Assembly: GCA_964631205.1 (NCBI GenBank) | Contig: CAZVWU010000006.1 | Coordinates: forward strand, 4,955 to 68,954 | Direction: 5' to 3' | DNA from: an uncultured archaeon | GTDB lineage: Archaea > Aenigmatarchaeota > Aenigmatarchaeia > QMZP01 > JACQNV01 | Length of the DNA stretch: 64,000 nucleotides | Shown here: positions 38,469-63,557 of the stretch, one piece after another | Position numbering within the stretch: position 1 is the first letter of the stretch | Layout of the letters: each line of letters opens with the position of its first letter | The notes under the pieces: model-generated | What the model saw: only the letters and a program-made list of their open reading frames with translations | Database searches by the model: none | What the model was told of the DNA's origin: nothing | Position numbers and translations under genes: made by a program

Positions 38469-41400
38469 GTGGCTATGATTACCAAGATTCAGAAAAGGGA
38501 TGGCAGGATTGTTGATTTTGACAAGGCGAAAATTGCGGATGCTATTTTTAATGCGGCAAAGGCTGTTGGCGGCAGCGACCGTTCGAAAGCAGAGAGGTTG
38601 GCTGAGCAGGTTGTTGTGCTTCTCCACAACAAAGGGTTTGGGTTTGAGAAGATCCCGGATGTTGAAACTCTTCAAGATTCTGTTGAGAAAGTTTTGATAG
38701 AAAACGGGCATGCAAGGACTGCGAAGGCGTATATTTTGTATAGGGAAGAAAGGTCGCGTGCAAGGTTCGAAAGGCAGAAGATAAGGAAAGAATCAAAGGT
38801 CATAGAAGAGATAAAGGAGCGGATTGAAGGGCCTGCTGACGATCCTCTTGAGATGATGTTCCGCCACAAGAGCAAGATGGCAAAGCTGATTTCGCAGAAA
38901 ACGCTGAACACATACAAAGAGCTTCTTTTCATGCTGAGGAAGATGCAGAAGAACAGGGAGATCCCGACGCATCCTGAAAACTCTTACCTCGGCGACAATG
39001 TGCTGGCAAAGGATATTTACTTAAGGAAATATTATGTGAAGGATTTGGATGGCAAGCCGATAGAGACAAGGCCGGAAGAAGTGTTTGCAAGGCTTGCGGC
39101 ATTTATGGCGGCTGTTGAAGATGCCGAGGAGAAAAGGGTCGCTTATGCAGTGAAGTTTTACAGGCATCTCTATGAAGGGCATTTCCTCCCAGGCGGACGT
39201 GTTATAGCTGGCGCAGGCGACCTTTACAGGCTGAAAACTCTGGCCAACTGTTTTGTTTCAATGATAGAGTCTGACAATATGGAGTCGATTTACAAGACTG
39301 CATACGAGTGCGCAAGGACATATTCCTATGGCGGCGGGATTGGGGTTGACATGTCAACTTTAAGGCCAAGGAATTCTGTTGTCCATAATGCGTCTGATTT
39401 CTCGACCGGATCAGTCTCCTTCATGGAATTATATTCGCTTACAACAGGCCTGATCGGGCAGTCAGGAAGACGAGGCGCGCTAATGCTGACTCTGGATGTA
39501 AAGCATCCTGATGTTTTCAATTTCATCAAAATAAAACAGGACTCGAATTGGGTCACAAGGCAGATAGTTGACCAGTGCAGCTGGTCTGGCATGTTTGACA
39601 AGGTCCAGCTTTCTGAAGTTGAAAGGCAGGTAAGGGAAAACACCCAGGTAAGGTTTGCCAACATCAGCCTCAAGGTTTGCGATGAGTTCATGAATGCAGT
39701 GGAGGAGCAGGCGAAATACAGCCAGAACACAATCCTTGTTTACAGGAGGCTGAAAGACGACACACCTGAAAAAACAAAGCAGGGCGAGATAAGGTATTCG
39801 ATTGGCATACCTTCAAAAGACCTTAATAATTATCAGATTGCTTACAAGGCTGAAAATATTGGCGACCTGAATTTGTTTTTAAAGGAGTATGGGAAGACTG
39901 TCGCGGAAGAGGAATTGAAGGATTTGAAGAACAGGACAATCTTCGGGGATTATATTGTGAAGGCTGCTGACGGGAAGGATCTCGCAATACATTATGCAGG
40001 GGATTTCATACTCTATTTCAATTCAGACCAGACAGGCGAAGTCAAAAAGCTTGTCAAGGCGCGGGAGATATGGAACCAGTTTGTCGCAAGCAATTACAAG
40101 ACAGCTGAGCCCGGCCTTATATTCTGGTCAAGGATGACAAAATATTCCCCGACAAATTACATTGGAAGGCCGATAATTTCGACGAACCCTTGTGGTGAGA
40201 TTCCTTTGCAAGACGGCGGCGCATGCAATTTGGGAAGTGTGAATTTGTCAAGGTTTGTAAATAATGGCTATACAAAGGGGGCTGAGGTTGATTGGGAAAG
40301 GCTGAGGACAGCTGTCCATGAGTTCACGAGATTTTTGGACAATACAATAACATGGAATGAGCAGCTTAATCCGCTTGAGAAGCAGCGGATTGCAACAGGC
40401 GAGACAAGGAGGCTTGGCCTTGGTGTGATGGGGATTGCTGACATGATGAACCAGCTTGGAATTGGGTATGACAGCGAGGAAGCTTTGGAGCTTCTTGAAA
40501 AGGTAATGAAGTTTATTGCAAATGAGTCTTACCGGTCATCTGCTGCGCTGGCAAAGGAGAAGGCGCCTGCGCCTTTGTGGGATTATCAGGCATATTCAAT
40601 GGGGCCTTTTTTCAGGGAATCCCTGACAGAGGATGTGAAAGATTTGATAAAGGACAACGGGCTGAGGAACCTTGCTATCCTGACAATAGCGCCTACTGGG
40701 ACCCTGTCCAATATAGTTTTAGGGTTTGTCAATGGGGTAAGGCATTATGCAGGCGTAAGCTCAGGCGTTGAGCCTGTATTTGCGTTATACTACAGGAGAA
40801 GATCGGAGACCCTTAACAAGGAAGAGAGCAGCAAGTTCTACACTGTTTTCCATCCAATTGTCGAGGCTTATGTTGAGATGGCAGGCCTCAAAGATTCGCT
40901 TGCGGACATCGAGGATTTGGAAGAGATGAGGAAAGTCCTGCCTGAGCATTTTTTCAGGACAGCGCATTTTATCGACCCTATGAAAAGGGTGCAGATTCAG
41001 GGGATCTGCCAGAAATACATAGACCATAGCATCTCTTCAACTGTCAACTTGCCTGAAAGCATAAAGCCTGATATTGTGTCGCAGATTTATTTTGAGGCGT
41101 GGAAAAAAGGTCTGAAGGGGATAACAATTTACAGGGACGGCAGCAGGTATCCGATACTTAGCGTTGCGACACAGCAGTCTGAATTCCAGAAAATGAAATC
41201 AAAGCCTTTCAAGGTAGTCACAGCTTCAGGCGAGCTTTTCGTAAAAGGGGATGAGGTGTTTGCAATGGACGATGGATCTCTAAGCACAGTCTTCCATTCG
41301 CTTGAGATGAACCATCCTGTGGAAATCATACATTTGGATCCAATCACACTGGAGCCTATTGGAAGCAACCTTGACAAATTTTTCACCCAGCAAAAACAGG

Positions 41401-41474
41401 GGACTTCCTCAGACCCGGCAATCTGCAAAATCGAGCTGAAGGACGGGAAGGTTGTGAAGACGTGCGAGGAATAG
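38469..41474 (+). CDS. nrdJ: Class II (B12-dependent) ribonucleotide reductase, ATP cone, with insertions
   Basis: IQKRDG ATP cone, LANCFV, RRGALM, TNPCGE, CNLGS, IAPTGT, SISST, GLKGITIYRDGSR. Confidence 0.88.
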   Translation: MAMITKIQKRDGRIVDFDKAKIADAIFNAAKAVGGSDRSKAERLAEQVVVLLHNKGFGFEKIPDVETLQDSVEKVLIENGHARTAKAYILYREERSRARFERQKIRKESKVIEEIKERIEGPADDPLEMMFRHKSKMAKLISQKTLNTYKELLFMLRKMQKNREIPTHPENSYLGDNVLAKDIYLRKYYVKDLDGKPIETRPEEVFARLAAFMAAVEDAEEKRVAYAVKFYRHLYEGHFLPGGRVIAGAGDLYRLKTLANCFVSMIESDNMESIYKTAYECARTYSYGGGIGVDMSTLRPRNSVVHNASDFSTGSVSFMELYSLTTGLIGQSGRRGALMLTLDVKHPDVFNFIKIKQDSNWVTRQIVDQCSWSGMFDKVQLSEVERQVRENTQVRFANISLKVCDEFMNAVEEQAKYSQNTILVYRRLKDDTPEKTKQGEIRYSIGIPSKDLNNYQIAYKAENIGDLNLFLKEYGKTVAEEELKDLKNRTIFGDYIVKAADGKDLAIHYAGDFILYFNSDQTGEVKKLVKAREIWNQFVASNYKTAEPGLIFWSRMTKYSPTNYIGRPIISTNPCGEIPLQDGGACNLGSVNLSRFVNNGYTKGAEVDWERLRTAVHEFTRFLDNTITWNEQLNPLEKQRIATGETRRLGLGVMGIADMMNQLGIGYDSEEALELLEKVMKFIANESYRSSAALAKEKAPAPLWDYQAYSMGPFFRESLTEDVKDLIKDNGLRNLAILTIAPTGTLSNIVLGFVNGVRHYAGVSSGVEPVFALYYRRRSETLNKEESSKFYTVFHPIVEAYVEMAGLKDSLADIEDLEEMRKVLPEHFFRTAHFIDPMKRVQIQGICQKYIDHSISSTVNLPESIKPDIVSQIYFEAWKKGLKGITIYRDGSRYPILSVATQQSEFQKMKSKPFKVVTASGELFVKGDEVFAMDDGSLSTVFHSLEMNHPVEIIHLDPITLEPIGSNLDKFFTQQKQGTSSDPAICKIELKDGKVVKTCEE

Positions 41475-41521
41475 GATTATAAGGTTCTCTTTCTTGTTGT
41501 TGGAAAACTTATCTCGCTTAA

Positions 41522-41677
41522 TTAATCCAATTGGACAAACCTGTCTCCTTCTTTCCTTACCACCATTTCTGCACCATATCGTCTTCTAATATCTTTATAA
41601 ATTGTTTCAGGAAGGTCCCACGTTTCCTGTTCAGCTTCACGACCCAAATTGCGCCATTGCCCTTGACAGAGTCGCAT
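41522..41677 (-). CDS. Possible 51-aa ORF starting inside site 1
   Basis: MRLCQGQWRNLGREAEQETWDLPETIYKDIRRRYGAEMVVRKEGDRFVQLD*; below ORF-track cutoff. Confidence 0.3.
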   Translation of the reverse strand: MRLCQGQWRNLGREAEQETWDLPETIYKDIRRRYGAEMVVRKEGDRFVQLD

Positions 41678-41695
41678 AACACACTTATGTGCAAT
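41669..41695 (+). other. dif/Xer-like site 1: GAGTCGCATAA-CACAC-TTATGTGCAAT
   Basis: Resembles E. coli dif (GGTGCGCATAA-TGTATA-TTATGTTAAAT) but with a 5-bp spacer. Confidence 0.65.
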
Positions 41696-41709
41696 ATTAC
41701 TCGGGCTTG

Positions 41710-42258
41710 CTAAGAAATGTGCGCAAAAATATCACTTAATTTTTTGATGGTTCTCTTTACATGTGTCCTCATTGGCTCGTATTCTGATTCAATTAGCAAA
41801 GCATCCACTCCTACATCTTCTGCAGATCGGTAATCCCACTTGTAACTGTCTCCCACCATCAGCGCTTTTGATTTTGGTATTTTTTTCTGTTTCAAAATCT
41901 TTAAAATAAGTTCTCCTTTCGACCTGGGGTCTACTCTTGTTGCATGGATTTCATCAAACAATTTTTCTAATCCAAAGTGTTTTATTTTGTGTTTGATGAT
42001 TGCATCTGCTTCTTTTGGTGGATGCGGGTGGGTCGAAAGAACTATGGTAATTATTCCAATTAGTTTTAGTTTCTTTAGTGTTGACAGCGCTGATGGTGTC
42101 ATGATAAGATGATTTGTATGATTTTTGAACCTGCGATCTTTGTAAAGCCAAACTGGATGCTTTGCATACTTTGTTTTCTGTGGATACCAAAGAGTTCCAT
42201 CACCATCAAAAAATATTATTTTCTTTTTCATGTTTATCATATTGATATTTTTGCGCAT
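41710..42258 (-). CDS. HAD-superfamily hydrolase (cassette 1 cargo)
   Basis: FFDGDGTLW, LST, K, MVGDSYKWD. Confidence 0.8.
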   Translation of the reverse strand: MRKNINMINMKKKIIFFDGDGTLWYPQKTKYAKHPVWLYKDRRFKNHTNHLIMTPSALSTLKKLKLIGIITIVLSTHPHPPKEADAIIKHKIKHFGLEKLFDEIHATRVDPRSKGELILKILKQKKIPKSKALMVGDSYKWDYRSAEDVGVDALLIESEYEPMRTHVKRTIKKLSDIFAHIS

Positions 42259-42327
42259 TGATAAATTTAACGCAAGCCCTGCGTCATACTGTGCCTACGC
42301 TTCGCTTCGGCATTTTTTCTTGCAGAA

Positions 42328-42355
42328 AAAACACATAACAGCGATTAAATGCAAT
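42328..42355 (+). other. dif/Xer-like site 2: AAAACACATAA-CAGCGA-TTAAATGCAAT
   Basis: 11-6-11 TAA-N6-TTA architecture. Confidence 0.65.
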
Positions 42356-42427
42356 CGCTGGCTCGCTAACTAATGCAAAGAAATCTAAGAAAATATTAAA
42401 AGGCTGGGCGTCTTAAAAGAAAACAAT

Positions 42428-42817
42428 TTATTTCCTTCTTTGTTCAATATAACGCCTTGCACCTTCACTTCCTTCTTGTGATGCAATTTGTCCTGCTTTG
42501 AAAGCATCTTCTGGAGAAACTGAGAACATATCTCTTCCGAAAATTGGATGACTTACATCAGGAAGAGCTCCAAACCATTTATCAGCAGTTGCTTTATCAT
42601 AATATCCAACAATATATCCTATGTTGCTATTTGCACATGCTTCTGGATTTGCTCTTACATTTTCAGAATCTCCGTGTTGTCTGAGATATCCAACATATTC
42701 TTGATAGAATTGTATCATTTCTGTTGGGTCTCTTAATGTTTCAACTGCTGTAAACACAGGGTTTCTTCCAGGTTTTGCTTTTTCAAGCCTTTCTAATAGA
42801 CTCATTTTGTATGCCAT
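42428..42817 (-). CDS. Hypothetical protein (cassette 2 cargo)
   Basis: 129-aa ORF with its own TTTATAAA box at ~42839..42846. Confidence 0.7.
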   Translation of the reverse strand: MAYKMSLLERLEKAKPGRNPVFTAVETLRDPTEMIQFYQEYVGYLRQHGDSENVRANPEACANSNIGYIVGYYDKATADKWFGALPDVSHPIFGRDMFSVSPEDAFKAGQIASQEGSEGARRYIEQRRK

Positions 42818-42972
42818 ACATTTAGTAGTAGGTTAAGCTTTATAAAGCTTTCGGTTGTTCACTACTCTTACGATACGATGCCCCGCCCTAAAACGAACGC
42901 TCGCCAGCGACTTCTTCGTCGGGCTTCGCCCTCCTCGACCACGTTGCACTCTCCTCAGCCTTCGGCTTCTTC

Positions 42973-43000
42973 GGGGCATTTAACAGGCATTAGTCGACAT
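42973..43000 (+). other. dif/Xer-like site 3: GGGGCATTTAA-CAGGCA-TTAGTCGACAT
   Basis: 11-6-11 TAA-N6-TTA architecture. Confidence 0.65.
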
Positions 43001-43016
43001 AAGCCTCCTAAAGGGC

Positions 43017-43274
43017 TCACAATCCTTTGTATATTCTTGAGCGGTGATCTACAACAAGAATTTCCAATGCTTTGGTTTTCTGATCGACGTCTATGAGAAC
43101 ACGCCAATCACCGACTCGCAGTTTGTACATCTTAAGATTTGGATAGTAATCCAAATAAATTAATGGGTCATCTTTGATGCTGTCTACCTTTTTGACAATT
43201 CGGCTAGAAACAGTAGGGTCACATTTGCGAAGAAATTCTTGGGTTCTTGGATGCCATTTAATCGTGTATGTCAT
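43017..43274 (-). CDS. relE: RelE/ParE-family toxin (cassette 3 cargo)
   Basis: YTIKW...RIVKKV..IKDDP...YKLRVGDWRVL...VDHRSRIY. Confidence 0.85.
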   Translation of the reverse strand: MTYTIKWHPRTQEFLRKCDPTVSSRIVKKVDSIKDDPLIYLDYYPNLKMYKLRVGDWRVLIDVDQKTKALEILVVDHRSRIYKGL

Positions 43275-43277
43275 CTG

Positions 43278-43478
43278 TTATTTTGCAAACTCCTTCATCA
43301 TTTCTTCATGTGCGACAAACTTTGTTTTGATCTCTTTGCGGGCTTGTTTTATCTGTTCAATCGCTTCTTCTCTTAGCTCAGGTTCGTGGAGAAGAAGTTC
43401 CCTTATTTCATGCACGTCTTTTTTTACCTCTGCGACTTCCCTATGAAGCTGTTCCAATGTAGTTTGCATAATTTTCAC
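43278..43478 (-). CDS. Putative antitoxin of the RelE-type pair
   Basis: Small helical ORF directly upstream of the toxin, ending FVAHEEMMKEF. Confidence 0.7.
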   Translation of the reverse strand: MKIMQTTLEQLHREVAEVKKDVHEIRELLLHEPELREEAIEQIKQARKEIKTKFVAHEEMMKEFAK

Positions 43479-43562
43479 CTTTTTATAGTTGGTTTGGAGT
43501 ATTTAAAAGTTCGCCCTTTCTCCGGCTTAGCTCTGCTGAAACCCCTTAAAGAGATCCCATAG

Positions 43563-43590
43563 GTGTTGCATGACAGAGGAAAGAGGCAAT
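43563..43590 (+). other. Degenerate site 4: GTGTTGCATGA-CAGAGG-AAAGAGGCAAT
   Basis: Left arm matches site 1 left arm at 8/11; right arm ends GCAAT like sites 1 and 2. Confidence 0.5.
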
Positions 43591-43650
43591 TCTTAGTTAT
43601 TTGAACGGGATTTTATAAACCATTGAAGAATATTATAGTATGGCTAATTT

Positions 43651-45789
43651 ATGCCCAGCATAAAGCAGATCAGGAAAAGGGACGGGAGGATTGTAAAGTT
43701 TGAGAAATCGAAAATTACAGACGCTGTGCTGAAGGCGCTGACTGCGACTGGGGAACAGGACGGAATACTTGCAGACAGGTTGGCAGGCAAAGTTGTTGAG
43801 CATCTGGAAAGCCAGACTCCGAAAAACAGGATCCCGAATGTTGAGGAGATACAGGATATTGTTGAGCATGTGCTTATGTCTGAAGGGCACGCGAAGACTG
43901 CGAAAGCGTATATTTTGTACAGGAGAGAGAGGGCTAAGATAAGGGAGGCGAAAGCCCTTCTAGGTGTGCAGGATGACCTGAAGCTGACTATAAATGCGGC
44001 AAAGGTTCTGGAAAAAAGGTATTTGAAAAGGGATGGGGATGGCAAGGTTGCAGAAACCCCAAGCCAGATGTTCAGGAGGGTTGCGGACAATGTCGCAAAG
44101 GCAGATGAGTTTTATGGGGCAAAAAAAGAGGAGATAAAAAAAATTGCTGATGAGTTTTATGGCATCATGTCTAAACTAGAGTTCCTGCCAAATTCCCCCA
44201 CCCTGATGAATGCAGGGACTCCAATACAGCAGCTGTCTGCTTGCTATGTGATGCCTATAGAGGATTCCATTGCAGGGATTTTCGACACGCTAAAAAATAC
44301 AGCCCTGCTCCAGCAGACAGGCGCAGGCACTGGGTTTTCTTTTTCAAGGATAAGGCCAAGGGGGAGCCTTGTCAGGTCAACAGGCGGATCGTCGTCAGGC
44401 CCTGTTTCCTTCCTGAAAGTTTACAATTCTGTGACAGACGCAATAAAATCCGGTGGCAAGAGAAGGGGAGCGAACATGGGCATATTAAGGGTTGACCATC
44501 CTGACATAGTCGAGTTCATAATCTCAAAAGAAAAGGATGAGAGCCTTGCAAGCTTCAACATCTCTGTTGCAATTACGGATAAGTTTATGAAAGCTGTCCA
44601 GGAAAATAAAACTTATAATTTAATTGATCCCCATACAGGGGAGCTTGTAAATAAATTGGATGCTGGGAGAGTTTGGGACCTGCTTATGACAATGGCATGG
44701 AAGTCAGGAGATCCTGGGATTGTTTTCATTGACAGGATAAACCAGACAGAGTCAAACCCAACACCGAAGCTCGGGATGATAGAATCAACTAACCCGTGTG
44801 GTGAAACTCCATTATTGCCGTACGAGTCCTGCAATTTGGGTTCGATAAATCTTTCCAAGATGGTGAAGGAGGAAGCAGGCAAAAGCGCCGTAGACTGGGA
44901 TAAAATAAAGGATGTTGTCTGGAAGGCCGTCCATTTTCTGGATAATGTGATCGACATGAACAAATACCTTATGCCGGATATTGAGAGCATCACAAAGGCT
45001 AACAGGAAAATAGGGCTGGGTGTGATGGGATTTGCAGATCTGCTTATAGAGCTCTGGATTCCTTACAATTCTGAGGAGGCTGTGAAAATAGCTGAAAAAG
45101 TGATGAAGTTTATAGACGAGGAGTCTAAAAATGCGTCAGCTGAATTGGCAAAGGGAAGGGGACAGTTCCCCAACTTCAGAAAAAGCATCTGGCCAAAGAA
45201 AGGGTTTAAAATGTTAAGGAACGCTGTGACAACAACAATTGCCCCAACAGGGACAATTTCAATCATCGCCGGCTGCTCTTCCAGCATAGAGCCGCTTTTT
45301 GCTGTCTCGTATGTCAGGAATATTCTCGACCAGACAGAGCTTCTGGAAGTGAACCCTATATTTGAAAAGGTTGCCAAGGAAAAGGGTTTCTATTCAGAAG
45401 AGCTTATGAGGCTTGTTGCAAGGCAAGGGTCTATACAGCATATAAAGGAAATTCCAGAAGATGTAAAGAAGATTTTTGTGACTGCCCATGACATAGGGCC
45501 TGAAGACCATGTGAACATACAGGCTGCTTTCCAGAAGCATATTGATCTGGGGGTTTCAAAAACAGTTAACTTCCCGAACGAGGCTACTGTTGAGGATGTT
45601 GAAAAGGTTTTCCTGATGGCGTACAAGAGCGGATGCAAAGGCATAACAATTTACAGGGACAGGAGCAAAAGCGAACAAGTCCTGAATATTGAACTGGTCA
45701 GGAGTAAGATCAGGCCAAGGATGAGGAGATTAAAAACCGGGAAAAACAAGCCTTCTGATTTATCTGCCAACAAGTGCGACGTGTGTTGA
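43651..45789 (+). CDS. nrdJ: Class II ribonucleotide reductase with ATP cone (second copy)
   Basis: IRKRDG, PNSPTLMNAG, LSACYV, RRGANM, TNPCGE, IAPTGT, KGITIYRD, terminal CxxC. Confidence 0.92.
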   Translation: MPSIKQIRKRDGRIVKFEKSKITDAVLKALTATGEQDGILADRLAGKVVEHLESQTPKNRIPNVEEIQDIVEHVLMSEGHAKTAKAYILYRRERAKIREAKALLGVQDDLKLTINAAKVLEKRYLKRDGDGKVAETPSQMFRRVADNVAKADEFYGAKKEEIKKIADEFYGIMSKLEFLPNSPTLMNAGTPIQQLSACYVMPIEDSIAGIFDTLKNTALLQQTGAGTGFSFSRIRPRGSLVRSTGGSSSGPVSFLKVYNSVTDAIKSGGKRRGANMGILRVDHPDIVEFIISKEKDESLASFNISVAITDKFMKAVQENKTYNLIDPHTGELVNKLDAGRVWDLLMTMAWKSGDPGIVFIDRINQTESNPTPKLGMIESTNPCGETPLLPYESCNLGSINLSKMVKEEAGKSAVDWDKIKDVVWKAVHFLDNVIDMNKYLMPDIESITKANRKIGLGVMGFADLLIELWIPYNSEEAVKIAEKVMKFIDEESKNASAELAKGRGQFPNFRKSIWPKKGFKMLRNAVTTTIAPTGTISIIAGCSSSIEPLFAVSYVRNILDQTELLEVNPIFEKVAKEKGFYSEELMRLVARQGSIQHIKEIPEDVKKIFVTAHDIGPEDHVNIQAAFQKHIDLGVSKTVNFPNEATVEDVEKVFLMAYKSGCKGITIYRDRSKSEQVLNIELVRSKIRPRMRRLKTGKNKPSDLSANKCDVC

Positions 45790-45793
45790 TTCT

Positions 45794-46369
45794 ATGAAAA
45801 CTGCGATTAAAGTTTACATAGCAGGCAAGGTCAATCCTAATTCAGTTTTTGGAACTCATAAATGGCGGGATAAATTCTGCGAAGTGCTATCAAAAAAATC
45901 TGGGTTTGAAATAATAAATTTGGATCCAACTAAACACGAAAAGGATTTTGATCTTGACGAAGGAAACGCAAAGCTTATTTTTGGACGAGATAGTTTCATG
46001 ATAAAGATATCTGATATGGTGGTGGTAAATCTTACAGACGATATCAGTGTTGGCGGCTCCCAGGAGATGTTGATAGCCAAATATTACAAAAAACCGCTTG
46101 TCGGGTTGGCTCCCAAAGGAGGGAAATTCAACAAGGAAGAAAAAGAAATTCTAGGCAGAACTTACAAAAACTGGGTACATCCATTTGTGGCAATCCCCTG
46201 CGATAAAGTCGTTGAAGATATTGATCAGTTGGCTTTTTTTATCAAAACTTTCTTTTCAGGCGAAAACGATACTAAAACAAAGAACATCTCTGTCATAGAC
46301 GATGCTGAGGCGTATTACAAGAAAAAACATTATAAAAAAGACAAGCAACTCCATGTAAAGGAGAAATAA
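45794..46369 (+). CDS. Nucleoside 2-deoxyribosyltransferase-like protein
   Basis: VYIAG, WR, RD..IK.SDMVV, SVGGSQEM.IA...KP. Confidence 0.6.
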   Translation: MKTAIKVYIAGKVNPNSVFGTHKWRDKFCEVLSKKSGFEIINLDPTKHEKDFDLDEGNAKLIFGRDSFMIKISDMVVVNLTDDISVGGSQEMLIAKYYKKPLVGLAPKGGKFNKEEKEILGRTYKNWVHPFVAIPCDKVVEDIDQLAFFIKTFFSGENDTKTKNISVIDDAEAYYKKKHYKKDKQLHVKEK

Positions 46370-51736: not shown

Positions 51737-51903
51737 TGGGCCCGCTGAGGATTGAACTCAGGGCCTCTGCATTATCAGTGCAGCGCGCTACCAATACGCA
51801 CGTTCTTTCTAGTGCAGGTCTTTGCCTCAGCAAAGAAGTGCTTTCTAGTGCAGGTCTTTCTTGGGTTTATGCCCTGAAGAAAGAAGTGCTGCGCCACGGG
51901 CCC
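51737..51903 (-). tRNA. tRNA-Ile(GAT) with 93-nt D-loop intron (51795..51887) made of two tandem module B copies
   Basis: GGGCCCG/CGGGCCC, CTGCA-CTGATAA-TGCAG; BHB CGCA GC|A ... TGCG TA|T. Confidence 0.92.
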
Positions 51904-51939
51904 GCAATCTATGATTCTATTCTAACTTTATATAAATAA

Positions 51940-52022
51940 TGGACCCGCTGGGATTTGAACCCAGAGTCACTTGGATTCCCGTACATTGCGAACCAAGCGT
52001 GTTGCCGTTACACCACGAGCCC
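51940..52022 (-). tRNA. tRNA-Ala(CGC) with 11-nt 37/38 intron (51976..51986)
   Basis: G3:U70 pair, CTTGG-TTCGCA|ATGTACGGGAA|T-CCAAG. Confidence 0.88.
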
Positions 52023-52060
52023 ATTACTATTAATTCTATCAATATATTATATACAAAAAT

Positions 52061-63436: not shown

Positions 63437-63557
63437 GCGGGGGTACCCAAGTGGTCAAAGGGGCTAGGCTTAGGTATCTAAGAGCCATGCTCAGAAATTA
63501 GCTATTAAGAAACCTAGTGCTTTAGTAGCTTCGCAGGTTCGAATCCTGCCTCCCGCA
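63437..63557 (+). tRNA. tRNA-Leu(TAG) with 37-nt 37/38 intron (63475..63511)
   Basis: CTAGG-CTTAGG|A-CCTAG; BHB CTTA/TAAG. Confidence 0.92.

Follow-up and report, generated by a model that had tools for sequence, protein, structure and literature searches.

A probable integron-type array of hairpin-less gene cassettes in a DPANN-type archaeon

Background

What kind of element is the row of three gene cassettes that separates two ribonucleotide reductase genes in an uncultured archaeon? The locus lies at 41.7-43.6 kb of a 64,000-nt stretch of DNA, here called the window (positions 4,955-68,954 of contig CAZVWU010000006.1, assembly GCA_964631205.1, a genome that is 94% complete), which is present in groundwater metagenome runs; no tyrosine recombinase is encoded within the window. 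A sequence-only reading had described an integron-like gene-capture array in an archaeon without a recombinase in the window, in which three cassettes are joined at dif-like sites that recombine at AA|C, perhaps by the host XerA. Every motif that it quoted is found where it had been placed, the cargo is as it described (Pfam), and the gene-capture array itself is supported by what follows, while the family of the sites, their polarity, the point of exchange and the enzyme all had to be revised. We conclude that the locus is probably a short integron-type array, comprising three cassettes and lacking an integrase in cis, in a small-genome archaeon of DPANN type, and that its sites are of a short form, which we propose to act as folded cassette ends used by a Xer-like enzyme.

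Integrons are the textbook case of gene capture via a folded single-stranded site, and the IntI-specific domain is thought necessary for attC recombination. Integrons in Archaea were reported in 2022, mostly without a detected integrase and with hosts that include DPANN/Nanoarchaeota; in that study an IntI was accepted only where PF00589 and the IntI-specific domain profile were both present (Ghaly et al. 2022, PMC9668308).

Results and discussion

The window sites belong to an attC family that is widespread in the order

A DNA search with window positions 42900-42992 showed that this element is repeated across many of the order's genomes, frequently where contigs end, and its aligned copies have conserved blocks between hairpins with covarying arms. 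The full element reads as an attC site, in the order ATTTAAC (the R'' box), A, the L'' box, variable hairpins, AACTT, the complementary L' box, GAT and G|TTAnnnn (the R' box). RNAalifold on ten full copies predicted the R''/R' and L''/L' stems with 16 pairs, six of which show compensatory changes. A covariance model built from the ten copies detected the family in 37 of 91 genomes of the order, the window genome included, with 13 matches in genome G028 alone and a full attC (111.9 bits) on contig C12 of the window genome. On contig C9 of G028 five sites follow one another in direct order, 660-830 bp apart, with one gene per interval; these genes (GNAT, NUDIX and others) are co-directional, and upstream of them lies a divergent gene for a tyrosine recombinase of 269 aa. 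The cargo of arrays of this family (GNAT, NUDIX, glyoxalase/bleomycin-resistance, GmrSD, metallophosphoesterase and toxin-antitoxin genes) is typical of integrons. IS200/605 ends and bridge-RNA elements, which had also been considered, were dropped once the attC structure and the array layout were clear.

Cassettes of the family start with |TTAnnnn(C/A)AAT and end in an R'' box, nnnnYTAAC, that is complementary to their own first 7-8 bases, and the gene may lie in either orientation. At the level of sequence, these comparisons establish that the window sites are the R''/R' core boxes of the family and homologous to attC boxes, so that the cassettes of the window belong to a family widespread in the order. 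The sites are therefore not dif-like by descent, as had been supposed, being homologous instead to the R''/L''/R' boxes of an attC family whose hairpins covary.

A short junction without the attC hairpin

Read on the + strand, the boxes of the four window sites terminate at 41680, 42339, 42984 and 43574, and the cassettes occupy 41685-42344, 42345-42989 and, less certainly, 42990-43579, starting with TTATGTGCAAT, TTAAATGCAAT and TTAGTCGACAT, respectively. Cassette 1 is delimited by end complementarity and by a recurring 3' module (42283-42339), which closes with the R'' box CACATAAC (42332-42339) and precedes the spacer AGCGA (42340-42344). Cassette 2, with the R'' box GCATTTAAC at 42976-42984 and the spacer AGGCA at 42985-42989, is delimited by a shuffle test, a covariance model match and copies in genome G011 and in metagenome loci L131 and L132, and cassette 3 by a stem close to its ends, its 3' end being degenerate. 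Junctions J1 (GCATAAC-ACAC|TTATGTGCAAT), J2 (CACATAAC-AGCGA|TTAAATGCAAT) and J3 (GCATTTAAC-AGGCA|TTAGTCGACAT) share one layout, in which a spacer of 4-5 nt separates R'' from the TTA that opens the next cassette and the L''/L' hairpin is absent. The hairpin arrangement R''-L''...L'-R' is found in most relatives and at none of the window junctions. Only J3 is matched by the family covariance model (42936-43002, 32.5 bits, E 2e-6), in an alignment that lacks the inner 84 of the 141 model positions; J1, J2 and the distal junction J4 gave no match. The window thus has one site called by the family model and no integrase nearby, where a CALIN (cluster of attC sites lacking an integrase) is defined by at least two recognisable attC sites within a few kb and without an integrase nearby.

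Short junctions also stand behind single cassettes on contig C12 of the window genome and on G001:C14, and since each of these follows a full attC, the short and the hairpin forms mix. The former is part of a second small cassette locus in the same genome (G000 contig C12:17000-17800; L026 2950-3800), in which an inverted HAD-like fragment is followed by the full attC of 111.9 bits (with A, not G, before TT) and by a forward glyoxalase-family cassette with a 9-bp outer stem that terminates in the short junction CACTTAAC-AGGCA|TTTTAC.

A cassette found between other neighbours, and the point of exchange

When metagenome contigs were scanned with an alignment of the family of the 129-aa protein encoded in cassette 2, 11 loci were found. 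One of them, L131, contains a copy that is 92% identical to window 42333-42992 and has other neighbours on both sides; its junctions read ...CCTAAC-ACCGA|TTAAATGC on the left and GCATTTAAC-AGGCA|TTATATTC on the right. The whole of L131 is a chain of four short-junction cassettes with an end complementarity of 8/8, outer stems of 8, 8, 16 and 9 bp, and genes in both orientations. Since the copy of cassette 2 is bounded there by short junctions of the same form amid different neighbours, the short form is, as far as these alignments tell, a real architecture and not decay alone. L131 also contains (reverse complement, 970-1227) two tandem 127-nt units without an open reading frame (ORF), with the short junctions GAACCTAAC-AGTGA| and -ACCGA|, which look like duplicated empty cassettes. 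When the cassettes of L131 were searched for across the order, only the cassette for a tRNA-binding domain gave matches, to its gene body, and no cassette ends were found.

In a second locus, L132, an 89.7% copy (window 42345-42866) lies with its gene inverted in an ordinary hairpin-attC array, where it starts exactly at G|TTAAATGC after an attC. In genome G011 the ends of cassette 2 are found next to rpiB, again with the start G|TTAAATGC, and enclose an unrelated ORF of 129 aa. The two ORFs (L015, i.e. G011:C12, 464-853, and window 42428-42817) both encode 129 aa, are unrelated in sequence and share just the hexapeptide TLRDPT; the enclosing cassette ends are 81-85% identical over 73 and 124 nt. 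In G010 and other contigs from the source sample the 57-nt module 42283-42339 recurs, each copy ending exactly in ...AAC, and one contig (record 12 of run X2) has 42284-42456, that is J2 with the beginning of cassette 2, joined to a different upstream sequence. Homologs of the cargo with the same ends, which the sequence-only reading had proposed to look for, therefore exist for cassette 2, as complete or nearly complete copies between other neighbours in L131 and L132 and as ends only in G011; the toxin-antitoxin unit of cassette 3 recurs in G004 with other limits.

These copies also locate the exchange. The spacer goes along with the R'' side: both copies of cassette 2 have AGGCA, and AGCGA stands opposite ACCGA where the left neighbours differ. 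Because the spacer travels with R'', and because the unrelated DNA in G011 and L132 stops before TT, the exchange is placed at N|TT on the + strand, which gives the exchange points 41684|5, 42344|5 and 42989|90, backed by the three comparisons, and lies 5-6 nt to the right of the AA|C crossover first proposed. By this evidence cassette 2 has changed place as one unit, with its limits at N|TT.

What precedes the second reductase gene differs between genomes of the family, a comparison that the sequence-only reading had suggested: this space holds the three cassettes in the window genome and 64 bp in G004 (L002 1062-1125), and in G001 (L014 1726-3186) it holds a NUDIX-like fragment, a deoxyribosyltransferase-like gene and a different HAD gene. 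In the window the deoxyribosyltransferase-like gene (45794-46369) comes after the second reductase gene, and in G001 it sits between the two reductase genes. Neither an empty site nor breakpoints could be gained from this comparison. The genes between the reductase genes of G001 are different and tightly packed, with no site of the family, and in G004 another reductase-like gene is followed by the 64 bp and the second reductase gene, the spacer sharing GTTGCAT and AGGCAA with J4, which is too little for an empty site.

Complementarity between the two ends of a cassette

In a chance test the opening 40 nt of each cassette were matched against the 120 nt that precede its AAC box; the score was the sum of the two best nested exact complements, and 2000 shuffles were scored likewise. 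The end-to-end complementarity described in the sequence-only reading proved non-random for cassette 1 (a sum of 15, which 20 of 2000 shuffles reached) and cassette 2 (sum 16, reached by 0 of 2000), but only marginal for cassette 3 and for site 4. Cassette 1 in addition has a longer gapped inverted repeat (41692-41758 versus 42189-42291) with a score of 39, where the best shuffle scored 29 and 0 of 300 reached it; cassettes 2 and 3, aligned locally in the same way, do not rise above their shuffles (reached by 197 and 269 of 300). The R' start pairs with the R'' end as TTATGTG with CACATAA in cassette 1 and as TTAAATGC with GCATTTAA in cassette 2.

Inside these boxes, subterminal complements form a further stem, here P0: GGGCTTGC (41703) with GCAAGCCC (42272) in cassette 1, pairing 41703-41710 with 42272-42279; TCGCTGGC (42355) with GCCAGCGA (42903) in cassette 2, pairing 42355-42362 with 42903-42910; and in cassette 3 TAAGCC (43000) and AAAGGGC (43010) with GCCCTTT (43513) and GGCTTA (43524), a P0-like stem between 43000-43016 and 43513-43529. 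P0 is a general feature of the family. Across 28 cassettes bounded by model matches, the longest exact complement averages 9.5 nt between a cassette's own ends versus 6.65 nt in 756 mismatched pairs, and a complement of at least 9 nt is present in 14 of the 28 versus 56 of the 756. Its 5' arm lies about 10 nt past TT and its 3' arm just downstream of the gene, directly before CTTCTTCG, and a second, inner stem is often present as well. The subterminal complementarities of the window cassettes are thus P0 stems, and since their 10-nt offset, in cassettes 2 and 3, is compatible only with the + strand being the top strand of the attC, the polarity of the sites is the opposite of that first assigned and the four genes are inverted relative to the sites.

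Between P0 and R'' lies a conserved module of about 70 nt (window 42911-42975), composed of CTTCTTCG, a covarying hairpin, CGACCACGYTGCRCTCTC and a second hairpin; in cassette 2 these are block B1 (42911-42918), hairpin H1, the core of block B2 (42936-42953) and hairpin H2 (42957-42967). B2 is better conserved than the R boxes, and in the window as in L019 and many other loci the module hairpins frequently have CTTCGG as their loop on the + strand. The module could be an accessory protein site, an RNA (with UUCG-type loops) or a terminator.

Folding with DNA parameters for single-stranded DNA predicts that the joined ends are more stable than the in situ junction in six of seven cassettes, i.e. 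cassette 1 (-31.1 versus -20.5 kcal/mol) and cassette 3 (-16.4 versus -11.5 kcal/mol) of the window and the four cassettes of L131 (gains of 5.5 to 11.8 kcal/mol). The claim that the structure is split over both cassette ends and forms only in the circle is therefore borne out insofar as the circle is predicted to fold better, but cassette 2 also occurs in the ordinary attC array of L132. The supposed pairing across the empty site, ATTGCCCTT (41656) with AAGAGGCAAT (43581), amounts to 6 exact bp plus mismatches, which simple arithmetic expects by chance between two 40-nt stretches, and we do not retain it.

A Xer-like recombinase is linked to the arrays of relatives

The 269-aa protein encoded beside the G028 array has 14 full-length matches with at least 59% identity across the order. 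Nine of these recombinase genes (in G028, G068, G037, G033, G079, G063, G038, G011 and G022) lie 0.4-1.7 kb from a site match on the same contig and are divergent from it. As for the remainder, the contig ends within 170 nt in two cases (G001:C5 and G085:C44), 743 nt of upstream sequence contain no site match in another (G024:C8), and no match is nearby in G010:C48 and G009:C2. Sites were also found upstream of a relative of the recombinase in five further archaeal loci (L048, L053, L057, L058 and L059) among 25 scanned, although L048 is the same place as G033:C12, already counted, and many of the 25 loci begin at the gene. We therefore observe a linkage between recombinases of the 269-aa clade and arrays of this attC family. 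Named relatives of the enzyme occur in Woesearchaeota, Pacearchaeota, Nanoarchaeota and similar metagenome-assembled genomes.

The recombinase scores best on the archaeal XerA NCBIfam model (209.7 bits, cut-off 220), whereas on the integron-integrase model TIGR02249 it reaches 199 bits (cut-off 265) in two stretches. It has 17 residues opposite 62 in VchIntIA (2a3v), and it aligns in one stretch with two XerA structures. From the 17 versus 62 residues, the sub-cut-off score on TIGR02249 and the single-stretch XerA alignment it follows that the enzyme lacks the IntI-specific insertion; a tyrosine recombinase with the IntI-specific domain was found neither in the window nor as the array-linked enzyme of the relatives. 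The earlier expectation of an Xer-type tyrosine recombinase at such sites thus holds for the relatives. The host XerA itself, however, is an unlikely candidate: G001, of the same genus, has a canonical XerA (239 bits, above the cut-off) plus a separate array-type paralogue (208 bits), and the window genome yielded neither. In four of the five relatives checked (G028, G037, G068 and G011, genomes that are 84-95% complete) the array recombinase is the best XerA-like gene, and none reaches the XerA cut-off; in these it might serve chromosome dimer resolution too.

A possible mechanism

We propose that single-stranded DNA, or an excised circular cassette, would fold by pairing its R' start with the R'' end of the same cassette, leaving the spacer as a loop of 5-6 nt, and that P0 would extend this stem beyond a bulge carrying the conserved module. 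A Xer-like recombinase of the 269-aa clade would then exchange strands at N|TT, either by cutting one strand, as integron integrases do, or by cutting at both edges of the 6-bp centre, as Xer enzymes do; either could apply. In the hairpin form P0 would seal the attC at its base once the cassette is circular, and within an array it would place the gene in a loop and draw adjacent sites towards each other. We infer that the folded cassette ends are the substrate and that the same enzyme recombines the short form, and that the window array is now served only in trans or is static. Because the genome seems to lack the enzyme, the latter may apply. It is conceivable, and we put it forward tentatively, that DPANN archaea have in this way a second, hairpin-less cassette architecture, in which a split site takes the place of the attC and exists only when a cassette's own ends pair (R' with R'', extended by a cassette-specific stem), and with a Xer-like integrase that lacks the IntI domain.

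One may also consider that these are sites of duplex Xer recombination at dif-like cores, with inverted arms of 7-8 bp around a 6-bp overlap and cuts at AA|C and N|TT, as in Xer-exploiting elements or pdif modules, in which no strand is folded and the complementarity of the ends is a by-product of palindromic circle sites. The form of the junction (arm, 5-6 nt, inverted arm) agrees with this, and so do a linked recombinase that is Xer-like from end to end, without the IntI domain that reads extrahelical bases, and its position as the best XerA-like gene in four of five relatives. Yet the outer arm positions covary cassette by cassette (GCAT/ATGC, GAAT/ATTC, CGCC/GGCG and GAAA/TTTC) and are followed by a P0 specific to each cassette, and a duplex read by protein needs neither; furthermore, the same family includes true hairpin attCs with covariation, and the spacer is retained by the left partner, as expected of a single exchange at N|TT. 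Moreover, dif is described in PMC8371274 as a single-copy 11-6-11 site, whereas the window has four sites in 2 kb with arms of 7-8 nt. We therefore consider duplex recombination quite improbable and, on account of the arm-specific covariation and P0, favour a folded substrate over a site read purely by protein.

Observations on the other side, and alternative explanations

A number of observations weigh against the folded-end array proposed here. The genome yielded neither an array-clade recombinase nor a XerA when searched with the recombinase as query (at 94% completeness), its sole PF00589 match being an unrelated 396-aa protein on contig C1 (27% identical). The base preceding TT at the window junctions is C, A and A, where the hairpin form has G. 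The complement sum of cassette 3 (13) is reached by 137 of 2000 shuffles and is not significant alone; this cassette has no matching R'' and therefore no R'/R'' pairing, and the homology of its toxin-antitoxin genes with G004 spans only about 43008-43524, stopping 19 and 55 nt inside the cassette limits. J4 is degenerate as well, with GAC instead of AAC at site 4 and a box, TTGCATGAC (43566-43574), that is not complementary to the start of cassette 3. Joining the ends of cassette 2 brings no gain in predicted stability (-17.7 joined versus -18.3 kcal/mol in situ). Short-junction chains are known from two places, neither of which adjoins a recombinase in the DNA scanned, and a heuristic search for single cassettes gave 7 matches in the genome versus 8 in a reversed control. 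Finally, neither the circle junctions nor the empty site predicted by the sequence-only reading occur among Logan contigs: none of these skips a cassette, and the single joint listed comes from similarity between the two reductase paralogues. Since Logan contigs drop rare variants, this last negative is no evidence against excision.

Several of these points would also be expected of a fossil array, in which the attCs have lost their L''...L' hairpins by deletion or by aberrant exchange at L'', the integrase has been lost, the genes have become fixed, and the short form is no substrate. The missing array-type recombinase, the base other than G before TT and the degenerate state of cassette 3 and J4 agree with this, as does the fact that the spacer plus TTA is identical to the start of the L'' box of the hairpin form (e.g. 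AGCGATTAA in G028); a truncated attC in which R'', L'' and the start of the hairpin are followed by unrelated DNA does exist (G001:C37). However, the same short geometry is found at three window junctions, at six L131 junctions, on C12 of the window genome and on G001:C14; the short 3' end of cassette 2 (R'' plus AGGCA) has been kept in two arrays, with the next cassette starting at TT in each; and the tandem 127-nt unit of L131 with its short junctions looks like recombination. A fossil array thus seems unlikely to us, although less so than duplex recombination at dif-like cores.

The remaining alternative involves no mobile element at all, merely chance similarity among AT-rich intergenic regions with terminator- or promoter-like repeats. 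The shared core of the four sites is indeed only about 7 nt, the pairing of cassette 3 and of the empty site is not significant, and the single-cassette heuristic (AAC, 4-5 nt, TT[A/C], an end complement of at least 7/8 and P0 of at least 8) finds as many matches in reversed DNA, one match, on contig C2, even falling within coding sequence. Since the control gave as many matches this heuristic is unspecific, and only chained cassettes are informative. A scan of 880 kb of loci for chains found them in the window and in L131 only, besides two AT-rich chains that are probably due to chance, versus one in the reversed-sequence control. Set against chance are the covariance match at site 3 (E 2e-6), the recurrence of cassette 2 in three other contexts with exact boundaries, and the shuffle tests passed by cassettes 1 and 2, which together make this explanation very improbable indeed.

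Relation to known systems

The folded-end array has much in common with archaeal integrons, bacterial chromosomal integrons and CALINs: tandem single-gene accessory cassettes, RYYYAAC...GTTRRRY boxes, first bases of the cassette (TTRRRY) that complement its own R'' (RYYYAA), arrays that in many cases have no detectable integrase and, in the relatives, an imperfect hairpin and a divergent tyrosine recombinase. It differs in that the linked recombinase lacks the IntI domain, the window junctions lack the L''/L' hairpin, P0 is specific to each cassette and accompanied by the module of about 70 nt, each cassette appears to have a TATA-like promoter of its own, and the window genes are inverted. 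In the literature searched we found no description of an integrase without the IntI domain beside archaeal attC arrays, of an outer stem with such a module, or of hairpin-less split sites, although the supplementary tables of PMC9668308 may list this lineage. All three lie beyond the published definition of an integron.

Cassettes bounded by a truncated attI (delta-attI-type) that are excised and inserted by the class 1 integron integrase have been described (Gonzales Machuca et al. 2026, PMC12901181), and these resemble the window cassettes in having a short two-arm site without an attC hairpin. They are, however, bacterial, of class 1/2 contexts with IntI1, and bounded by a truncated attI, whereas the boundaries here are an R''/L''-like half of the attC family, the cassette ends are complementary, and whole arrays are built so (L131).

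The array resembles Xer/dif systems and Xer-exploiting integrative elements in its linked recombinase, a member of the Xer family that lacks the IntI insertion, and in having short inverted arms around a centre of 5-6 nt. It differs in its direct sites, its cassette-specific arms of 7-8 nt and their homology to attC boxes, and in G001 XerA coexists with the array paralogue; dif itself is a site recognised by the host XerA. The pdif modules of Acinetobacter plasmids, whose small modules like those here often carry toxin-antitoxin genes, are flanked by oppositely oriented sites.

If this reading is true, many archaeal arrays that appear to lack an integrase hold one that has been overlooked, and CALINs might be complete integrons. 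Current integron finders would miss an array-linked recombinase without the IntI domain. Recombination of folded DNA would in that case need no IntI insertion, and the minimal requirements for structure-specific recombination would become testable. The window is a small example, perhaps an orphaned one, and it is the relatives that carry the broader pattern.

Cargo, flanking genes and other features of the window

The array lies downstream of a ribonucleotide reductase gene of the large-chain type (38469-41474, + strand, 1001 aa, with ATP-cone and reductase domains by Pfam) and upstream of a second reductase paralogue (43651-45789, + strand, 712 aa, Pfam), which is conserved in G001, G002 and G004. 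The segment from the stop codon of the first of these nrdJ-type genes to J1 (41475-41684, +) has no recognisable TTA at its 5' end and contains a 51-aa ORF without a Pfam match (41522-41677, -), a TTGCGCC block like the conserved B2, the box GCATAAC (41674-41680) and the spacer ACAC (41681-41684); what is left of an older cassette, or the edge of the array, may be represented by this segment. At the distal edge, J4 (43563-43591, +) consists of GTTGCATGAC, AGAGG and AAAGAGGCAAT, an assignment that is uncertain: on its right side the ...CAAT spacing of a cassette start is kept, with TTA replaced by AAA, and site 4 may instead be the remnant of a conserved upstream block (GTTGCA core).

All four cassette genes lie on the - strand: a HAD hydrolase gene in cassette 1 (41710-42258, Pfam), the 129-aa gene without a Pfam family in cassette 2 (42428-42817), and in cassette 3 a ParE/RelE-type toxin (43017-43274, Pfam) with its 66-aa antitoxin-like upstream partner (43278-43478). 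The 129-aa protein is found in 0 of the 90 other genomes of the order and belongs to an unnamed metagenomic family of 14 proteins without a Pfam domain; the HAD protein has a match in 1 of the 90, a weak one. A putative TATA-like motif can be read from the sequence upstream of each of the four genes (in cassette 2 it is AAGCTTTATAAAGC, 42836-42850). The motif around AAGCTTTATAAAGCTTTCGG (window 42834-42866) recurs as matches of 18-33 nt on six other contigs of the genome and is probably a common strong TATA/BRE (B recognition element) context. Apart from such promoter-like matches of 18-33 nt, a BLAST search of 41475-43650 against the whole genome found no further copy, and no transposase domain was detected among the window ORFs scanned by Pfam; an insertion sequence or miniature inverted-repeat transposable element was rejected on these two grounds.

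At Rfam gathering thresholds the window contains tRNAs alone, none of them in the cassette region: one of 121 nt at 63437-63557 and a partial one at 51745-51799. ARAGORN calls a tRNA with an odd 4-base anticodon at 51939-52023. The odd tRNA calls at 51745-52023 and 63437-63557 are probably intron-containing or split archaeal tRNA genes.

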